This document shows, piece after piece, positions 59,000 to 59,419 of a stretch of DNA of 64,000 nt. Made by a program: the position numbers and the translations under genes. The notes under the pieces were generated by a model. The model searched no databases. It had not been told where the DNA came from and worked only from the letters and a program-made list of their open reading frames with translations. The stretch lies in the NCBI RefSeq assembly GCF_001677475.2, contig NZ_CP015229.1; one strand, written 5' to 3'. Numbering within the stretch: position 1 is the stretch's first letter; each line of letters begins with the position of its first letter. The DNA is from Escherichia coli (lineage in GTDB: Bacteria > Pseudomonadota > Gammaproteobacteria > Enterobacterales > Enterobacteriaceae).

Positions 59000-59075
59000 G
59001 CGGGAATAGCTCAGTTGGTAGAGCACGACCTTGCCAAGGTCGGGGTCGCGAGTTCGAGTCTCGTTTCCCGCTCCA
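59000..59075 (+). tRNA. glyV: tRNA-Gly (anticodon GCC), 76 nt
   Basis: GCGGGAATAGCTCAGTTGGTAGAGCACGACCTTGCCAAGGTCGGGGTCGCGAGTTCGAGTCTCGTTTCCCGCTCCA; anticodon loop CUUGCCAAG. Confidence 0.95.
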
Positions 59076-59232
59076 AAATTTGAAAAGTGCTGCAAAGCAC
59101 AGACCACCCAATCGCAGTATTTCGAATTGCGACAAGGCGGCAACTGAACGAATCCTTGGGAGCTTACAAAAGTAAGTGACTAAGGTGAGTGAAGGCAGCC
59201 AAGGCAGTAGCGGTTCGAAAGACGAAGATTAA

Positions 59233-59308
59233 GCGGGAATAGCTCAGTTGGTAGAGCACGACCTTGCCAAGGTCGGGGTCGCGAGTTCGAGTCTCGTTTC
59301 CCGCTCCA
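59233..59308 (+). tRNA. glyX: tRNA-Gly (anticodon GCC), 76 nt
   Basis: Identical 76-nt copy of the first tRNA-Gly. Confidence 0.95.
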
Positions 59309-59343
59309 AAATTTGAAGGTGCTGTAAAGCACAGACCACCCAA

Positions 59344-59419
59344 GCGGGAATAGCTCAGTTGGTAGAGCACGACCTTGCCAAGGTCGGGGTCGCGAGTTCG
59401 AGTCTCGTTTCCCGCTCCA
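59344..59419 (+). tRNA. glyY: tRNA-Gly (anticodon GCC), 76 nt
   Basis: Identical 76-nt copy of the first tRNA-Gly. Confidence 0.95.

Follow-up and report, generated by a model that had tools for sequence, protein, structure and literature searches.

Evidence for an old, locus-bound ERIC-family element selected at the RNA level in the glyVXY tRNA operon of Escherichia coli

Three tandem tRNA-Gly(GCC) genes in the 64-kb stretch of Escherichia coli DNA analysed here (hereafter the window) are separated by spacers of very unequal length, which raises the question how this difference arose and whether the additional sequence matters to the operon. ARAGORN located the genes, all on the + strand, at 59000-59075, 59233-59308 and 59344-59419, and the Rfam tRNA model scored every one of them at 69.1 bits. 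The three sequences, 76 nt each, are identical, as an earlier note on this DNA had stated, and the spacers measure 157 nt (59076-59232; spacer 1) and 35 nt (59309-59343; spacer 2), again as described there. The locus is the ordinary E. coli-type glyV-glyX-glyY operon located between orn and datA/queG. The upstream neighbour is orn, encoding oligoribonuclease (58243-58788, + strand; translation of 181 aa; annotated as orn in E. coli records), queG/datA flank the other side, and the three tandem genes are preceded by one conserved promoter. The orn - glyV-glyX-glyY - queG region was matched in 5,425 of 5,426 complete E. coli genomes, and the annotation of K-12 MG1655 names the genes glyV, glyX and glyY and places spacers of 36 and 35 nt between them. 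Across positions 40000-64000 the window shares only ~98.0-98.4% DNA identity with the nearest of the 5,426 genomes, which include B2/ST131-type strains; its E. coli lineage seems to be missing from this set. A further tRNA gene, tRNA-Phe(GAA), lies on the minus strand at 30057-30132, ~29 kb upstream of glyV, a position that fits pheU of E. coli.

The glyVXY promoter region (58884-58949, + strand) comprises an A/T-rich tract (58884-58909), a -35-like TTGCAG (58915-58920), a 16-nt spacer, the -10 hexamer TATAAT (58937-58942) and the G+C-rich discriminator GCGCCTC (58943-58949). The block GGGGGGTTGCAG-N16-TATAATGCGCCTCCCGTAACGA is almost invariant in 16 genera and stays near-invariant between genera when the discriminator is included (GGGGGGTTGCAG-N16-TATAAT-GCGCCTCCC); function of this promoter in K-12 has been reported (PMC10950094). 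A consensus-based promoter scanner returned zero sites and missed the conserved promoter as well, because its -35 matches at only 3 of 6 positions, so the scan does not inform on promoters inside the operon. The probable 5' leader of the precursor, deduced from the promoter position and from general tRNA maturation, would span 58950-58999 (+ strand) and be removed by RNase P. At the other end, the 3' trailer with the terminator/attenuator occupies 59420-59478 (+ strand; fold of -14.3 kcal/mol, z -2.8); its hairpin and T-run (59442-59478) overlap the DnaA-box-like ATATCCACA (59438-59446), and an overlap of the glyVXY attenuator with DnaA box 1 is described for K-12 (PMC10950094). The region following glyY (59420-60400) is datA, the DnaA-inactivating site, with DnaA boxes TTATCCACA (59505-59513) and TTATTCACA (59667-59675) and two near-boxes, one being the ATATCCACA in the attenuator hairpin and the other TGTGGATGA (59679-59687, other strand). 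IHF binding at datA is reported to depend on transcription reading through from the glyVXY promoter, which controls it (PMC10950094).

Alignment of the two spacers, the check that the earlier note had proposed, demonstrates that they are related. Spacer 2 (AAATTTGAAGGTGCTGTAAAGCACAGACCACCCAA) corresponds to the 36 nt at the start of spacer 1 (AAATTTGAAAAGTGCTGCAAAGCACAGACCACCCAA), from which it differs by one A/G change, one C/T change in a loop and one 1-nt indel (GAAAAGTG versus GAAGGTG); the two substitutions and the hairpin had been noticed before, the indel had been missed. This direct repeat results from the tRNA genes being tandem copies. Both units contain a mini-hairpin with a 5-bp stem and a GNRA tetraloop, GUGCU-GCAA-AGCAC in spacer 1 and GUGCU-GUAA-AGCAC in spacer 2. 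The 5' part of spacer 1 (59076-59110, + strand) is composed of the A/U-rich AAATTTGAA (59076-59084), the mini-hairpin (GTGCT/GCAA/AGCAC, 59087-59100) and AGACCACCCA, and together with A59111 it is identical to the whole 36-nt glyV-glyX spacer of K-12. Spacer 2 (59309-59343, + strand) consists of AAATTTGAA, the mini-hairpin (GTGCT/GTAA/AGCAC, 59319-59332) and AGACCACCCAA. Spacer 1 is hence the 36-nt K-12 spacer (identical at 36/36 positions) followed by 121 bp directly before glyX. With AA present on both sides, the 121-bp difference can be placed in three ways (59110-59230, 59111-59231 or 59112-59232). Within it we delimit an element of 119 bp (59111-59229, + strand) by the K-12 alignment, the ERIC consensus, folding, covariation and paralogs. 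It is flanked by CA (59109-59110) on the left and TA (59230-59231) on the right, its ends being ambiguous by 2 nt in the alignment, and it terminates 1-3 nt before glyX.

The sequence comparison identifies this insert as a member of the ERIC/IRU family. ERIC is a MITE-like repeat of ~127 bp (Sharples & Lloyd 1990, Hulton et al. 1991 and Wilson & Sharp 2006, as cited in PMC2759123), which has TA termini and a TA target-site duplication (PMC2759123, PMC2229807). Aligned to the 127-nt E. coli ERIC (RU-1) consensus, in the version of Wilson & Sharp as printed in Delihas 2007 (PMC2759123), the element is identical at 99 of 127 positions (78%), in + orientation, collinear and free of internal gaps. 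Its left end resembles the consensus poorly (about 5/14), and CCCC and GGGG of the consensus are replaced by CCTT and AAGG, which are mutually compensating changes. The classical ERIC2 primer site matches at 19/22 and the ERIC1R site at 16/22 positions. The element forms a long imperfect palindrome: the RNA of spacer 1 is predicted to fold at -51 kcal/mol (z -4.9), the element alone at -43.7 kcal/mol (z -5.3), and none of 200 shuffles folded as well. BLAST detected 42,064 related places in 5,424 of the 5,426 E. coli genomes, with a median of 9 per genome. The closest E. coli paralog, in the puuR-puuC intergenic region of K-12-like strains, is 76.6% identical (BLAST E 1e-12); a second copy was not found within the 64-kb window, and an Rfam search at E<=1 yielded no family matching the element.

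The element shares with ERIC/IRU/RU-1 the length class, the central inverted repeat, the long imperfect hairpin, an intergenic position, which would lie within a transcription unit, paralogs scattered over E. coli genomes and the occurrence of centre-deleted short forms; copies of the glyVXY element in Klebsiella (K. oxytoca), Superficieibacter and UBA7338 also have TA/TA flanks. In contrast to typical ERICs, the ends of the window element differ from the consensus TATACCC...GGGTATA, with CA/TA as flanks, and the glyVXY copy keeps to a single locus, where it invariably sits 1 nt upstream of tRNA-Gly. Moreover, it resides in a tRNA spacer rather than beside protein-coding genes, and its conservation between genera is far above that of neutral sites.

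Three other candidate features were dropped. The element hairpin lacks a following T-run and was rejected as a terminator. A 15-nt stretch of the element (59141-59155; CAACTGAACGAATCC) and the 5' region of each tRNA-Gly (GGAATAGCTCAGTTG; 59003-59017, 59236-59250 and 59347-59361) show 80% complementarity, which is about the level of chance. An Rfam match to YrlA (Y RNA-like) at 59258-59396, which starts in the 3' portion of glyX, crosses spacer 2 and ends in the 5' portion of glyY, scored 40.3 bits against a gathering score of 69 and is an artefact, most likely reflecting the tRNA-like module of YrlA.

Comparison across strains, likewise suggested by the earlier note, revealed long and short alleles of spacer 1 among the 5,426 complete E. 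coli genomes. The long allele is present in about 1,600 of these (~30%); contiguous coverage gives 1,636, and demanding at least 95% identity to the insert gives 1,605. E. coli 7/2 possesses a copy identical to that of the window, and K-12, B, O157:H7, O55:H7 and APEC O1 have the short allele. The exact QueG protein of the window is very common in E. coli and is present with both alleles.

For comparison beyond E. coli, one locus per species was retrieved with the Orn protein as query from 80 GTDB species, tRNA genes were called with ARAGORN and all spacers were extracted; many of these loci come from draft assemblies, where near-identical tRNA units may have been joined in the wrong order. 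In spacers of 139-158 nt this ERIC-like element recurs, identically oriented, and ends in GAAAGACGAAGATTA(A/T) directly before the next tRNA. The carriers are a second Escherichia species (locus L004; 94.6% identical to the window at the locus), six Citrobacter, Leclercia, K. oxytoca, Kluyvera, E. asburiae, Silvania, Superficieibacter, Buttiauxella and UBA7338. Spacers of medium length (68-94 nt) retain only both ends of the element, whose basal stem still forms with new compensating pairs. Full or centre-deleted copies were present in 22 of 72 species loci and, 1 nt upstream of tRNA-Gly, in at least 10 genera of Enterobacteriaceae. Depending on the species the element occupies spacer 1, spacer 2 or both; it precedes the first tRNA copy in 4 species, the second in 15 and the third in 10, at a constant distance from the tRNA 5' end. 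Copies in the 5' leader of glyV were seen in C. sedlakii (L010), C. koseri (L043) and RIT714 (L024), ending in GAAGATTAA just before the tRNA; those of L010 and L043 are centre-deleted, and that of L024 was scanned at about 120 nt. The element is therefore associated with the 5' flanks of all three tRNAs.

Where the ERIC consensus reads CCCCAGGAG/CTGGGG, each of the 17 long copies has CCTTGGGAG/CTAAGG, and the ends AATCRCAGGATTTC...GAAAGACGAAGATTA are likewise common to all of them. A metagenome scan with the locus-specific core returned 14 contigs, and the element was situated between tRNA-Gly genes in 14/14. Judged by these shared sequence features, the element is one old locus-bound lineage that would predate the split of Escherichia, Citrobacter, Klebsiella, Enterobacter and their relatives, and not a recent arrival.

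We then asked how strongly the element is conserved. Between the window and other genera it is 79-94% identical, compared with 60-70% at third-codon positions of orn, which are an imperfect although conservative neutral standard, and with 61-73% in the orn-glyV intergenic region, which includes the conserved promoter (binomial P 1e-5 to 1e-14). The apical loop varies freely (AAAA, TGAA, TTAA, TAGA, TTCG), while changes in the stem come in pairs. The RNAalifold consensus structure comprises 38 pairs. Of its cells 98.2% pair, and in 13/38 pairs both sides have changed, a number reached by 0/500 shuffles and compared with 0-3 in slid controls; since the sequences are related, the cells do not count as independent events. 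G.U is found mostly or often in five pairs, A.C cells are almost absent, and the minimum free energy is -43.7 kcal/mol for the sense strand versus -24.0 kcal/mol for the antisense strand. This asymmetry and the difference between the strands argue that the constraint acts on RNA of the transcribed strand and not on a DNA cruciform. The comparative data indicate purifying selection on the sequence of the element and on the pairing of its sense-strand RNA; other constraints, for instance on the RNase P leader, could account for part of the conservation.

At the base of the element (59111-59125 with 59215-59229 in the window, and the corresponding part in L024, L040, L042 and L043), nucleotides predicted as unpaired are conserved, and tandem sheared G.A pairs are possible there. 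The basal loops, GA opposite GA and GCA opposite GAA, are retained in full as well as in centre-deleted forms. Their retention in both forms hints at a specific recognised motif.

The mini-hairpin of the shorter unit was addressed in the same set of loci. Taken alone, the two mini-hairpins of the window are only modestly better than shuffles, with energies of -7.2 (spacer 1) and -7.1 kcal/mol (spacer 2) and z of -2.2 and -1.4, and it is the comparison across genera that lifts the structure beyond chance. The short spacers of 33-48 nt consist of AAATTTGAA, then a small hairpin and then (G)CACCACCCAA. The stem reads GTGCT/AGCAC in Escherichia, GTATC/GATAC in Citrobacter, Leclercia and Enterobacter, GTGTC/GACAC and ATGTC/GACAT in RIT691, TGGCT/AGCCA in Buttiauxella, Cedecea and Dryocola, GGCC/GGCC in Mangrovibacter and GTACTT/AAGTAC in Salmonella arizonae. 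As the registers of the stems differ by genus, counting pairs in a single structure is unfit here, and every sequence was folded and shuffled separately. A hairpin of -3 kcal/mol or better was found in 45 of 64 short spacers (23-48 nt), and 42 of 47 distinct spacers of 33-48 nt fold better than their own shuffles (mean z -1.63). Folding of the 23-24-nt spacers of Klebsiella, Raoultella and Pluralibacter revealed no hairpin. The mini-hairpin, which covaries across genera through stems unrelated in sequence, likewise appears to be a conserved structural feature, yet a dispensable one, because these three genera have spacers without it. Of the earlier proposal that the conserved hairpin is a processing signal, the conservation of the structure in many genera holds, whereas its absence from these genera speaks against a strict requirement; it may be a candidate structured element beside an RNase E site. 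In a separate observation, five loci of Klebsiella, Raoultella and Enterobacter sp. (L019, L021, L026, L027, L030) have ~860 bp more between orn and the first tRNA-Gly gene than the loci of other genera; something has been inserted there, and their spacers are 23-24 nt long and free of the mini-hairpin.

How could the element act in the operon? Taken together, the data probably describe a single glyVXY precursor in which an old member of the ERIC family resides in spacer 1, lost in many lineages but kept by selection where present, and likely serving as a structured module of the precursor that is helpful without being essential. The glyV-glyX-glyY genes would be transcribed from the one conserved promoter, and this promoter together with the absence of a terminator-like site in spacer 1, between two tRNA genes of one operon, argues that glyX and glyY are probably transcribed through the element. 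The A/U-rich, single-stranded stretch right after the CCA end would be the expected site of an RNase E cut, and the C/A-rich tail of the spacer would form the 5' leader of the next tRNA, to be removed by RNase P. In the precursor RNA the element is predicted to fold as a long imperfect hairpin, and spacer 1 would be set free as an RNA of ~155 nt with both hairpins. Over time the element would have moved among the three tRNA 5' flanks, been cut down to its basal stem in some lineages and been lost in many. Its candidate roles are to organise or speed the separation of glyV from glyX-glyY, or to set the fate of the excised spacer. The selective constraint suggests a contribution of the ERIC hairpin to folding or cleavage of the precursor, or to what becomes of the excised spacer, especially by way of the basal stem, which survives in centre-deleted forms and has conserved purine-rich internal loops. 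From the many losses it follows that the element is not essential; its absence from ~70% of E. coli and from most species sampled implies that a benefit, if there is one, is slight or depends on conditions. What we infer from these data is co-transcription, the steps by nucleases, the direction in which K-12 changed and any function.

Where would RNase E cut? The RN↓WUU-type motif predicts cuts in the window 1 nt after glyY in the trailer and, behind glyV and glyX, at a distance of 2-3 nt. Within the element, the 5' basal arm has a conserved GGAUUU/GUAUUU that fits this RNase E-type motif, too. For K-12, RNase E has been shown to cut the glyVXY precursor 1 nt after glyY (PMC4191395), a cut that depends on the glyX-glyY spacer, which is single-stranded, and on the neighbouring tRNA on the upstream side, which serves as a structured unit (PMC4191395, PMC9841416). 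From these studies we infer the role of RNase E at the motifs within AAATTTGAA of spacer 1. The K-12 operon (PMC4191395, PMC9841416; for datA PMC10950094) agrees with the window in its genes, neighbours, promoter block, spacer 2, trailer and attenuator but is without the 121-bp element, which was therefore absent from the published experiments on processing. A precedent for an ERIC in RNA comes from Yersinia, where co-transcribed copies have an orientation-dependent effect and an RNase E site exposed by the fold was proposed (De Gregorio et al. 2005, as summarised in PMC2229807 and PMC3184786). The glyVXY element resembles this case in the conserved RNase E-type motif of its 5' basal arm; the Yersinia work concerns mRNA stability of protein genes, whereas the glyVXY element is flanked by tRNAs with RNase E and RNase P sites of their own.

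Going further, it is conceivable, and we offer it as a tentative extension, that an ERIC was captured long ago as a fixed RNA module of the precursor, whose basal stem is recognised by an enzyme or another protein, or whose spacer constitutes an abundant, growth-coupled RNA. A related and doubtful proposal is that excised spacer 1 is a stable, functional structured RNA, acting as a sponge or protein decoy and made in step with tRNA-Gly. It would fit with conservation that reaches predicted-unpaired nucleotides such as AAGGCGGCAACTGAA and GAAAGACGAAGATTAA, and with basal loops capable of tandem G.A pairing that are kept even after deletion of the centre. E. coli also provides a precedent in the sponges derived from the metZ-metW-metV spacers and the leuZ 3' ETS (PMC4583644, citing Lalaouna 2015). 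Like these metZ-metW-metV and glyW-cysT-leuZ 3' segments, the glyVXY spacer is a conserved non-tRNA part of a precursor that would be released by processing. The sponge spacers are short and pair with known sRNAs, and the likeness of the glyVXY spacer to them is a lead only. Against a stable spacer RNA speak the lack of an Rfam family for the element and its loss in most lineages with no obvious replacement.

Could the likeness between genera have come about without selection? The element might be a functionless relic kept similar by concerted evolution or horizontal exchange through the flanking tRNA genes, which at 76 bp and being identical within and between genera would serve well as anchors for recombination. 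In line with this, the element has clearly shifted between the array's three positions, and most lineages can do without it. Nonetheless we consider this unlikely. In element-bearing spacers the 5' part with its mini-hairpin is specific to the genus, which is evidence against recent horizontal spread of whole spacers, and the distances between elements roughly track those between orn genes. Moreover, changes concentrate in the apical loop or occur as compensatory pairs, and the asymmetry between G.U and A.C points to a constraint on RNA, all of which argues for the selected precursor module.

The direction of change within E. coli bears on the possibility that an ERIC transposed recently into spacer 1 in the lineage of this strain, with the K-12 arrangement being ancestral. 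The earlier note had thought of tandem duplication followed by an insertion in spacer 1 or a deletion from a spacer; the tandem copies and the composition of spacer 1 as a spacer-2-like unit plus 121 bp bear this out, while the ERIC had gone unrecognised and the history is most likely the reverse of a recent insertion. An insertion would be in line with the identity of the K-12 spacer 1 to the 36 nt before the element, with the element being carried by only ~30% of E. coli, and with ERICs being regarded as mobile MITEs (PMC2759123, PMC3184786). It is nevertheless very unlikely, given that this copy, shared derived changes included, is found at the equivalent position in a second Escherichia species and about ten other genera, that no donor paralog closer than 76.6% exists in E. 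coli, that the empty site of K-12 lacks a TA target, and that all 14 of the 14 metagenome occurrences are in tRNA-Gly context. Because another Escherichia species and many outgroups carry the element at this position, the short spacer 1 of K-12 probably reflects its precise loss, the direction being taken from these outgroups and not from a reconstructed tree. Removing the 119 bp (59111-59229) together with one flank generates the exact K-12 junction, ACCACCCAA followed by GCGGG. Excision of the transposase type, deletion of the palindrome by replication slippage and gene conversion from spacer 2 fit this presence/absence polymorphism at glyV-glyX equally well, the last having candidate anchors in the shared AGCACAGACCACCCAA and the tRNA gene.

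Enterobacterial repeats of other kinds, such as BIME/RIP, bind IHF or gyrase. That the palindrome acts as DNA in a comparable manner, as a protein-binding or cruciform site or as a modulator of transcription into the adjacent downstream datA, where read-through of the operon controls IHF binding (PMC10950094), deserves very little credence, as pairing that tolerates G.U but not A.C and an antisense strand folding ~20 kcal/mol worse are not expected of a cruciform, no T-run follows the hairpin, and Table 1 of PMC2229807 lists no DNA motif for ERIC.

The operon, the processing of its precursor and the ERIC family are already known, and with operon and family being textbook matter there is nothing out of the ordinary in the basic finding, unlike in the comparative result. 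A full-text literature search for ERIC together with tRNA-Gly gave no match, and a description of a locus-bound ERIC copy that is orthologous across genera and selected as RNA was not found in the literature searched, although the glyV-glyX copy may already have been catalogued for some E. coli strains. The K-12 studies of precursor processing and of read-through into datA were carried out in a strain without an element that about a third of E. coli carry. The glyVXY element, segregating as present or absent in E. coli, therefore offers a natural test case for exaptation of an ERIC/MITE as an RNA structure. If it was indeed captured as a module of the precursor, natural E. coli strains would differ in function through its presence or absence.
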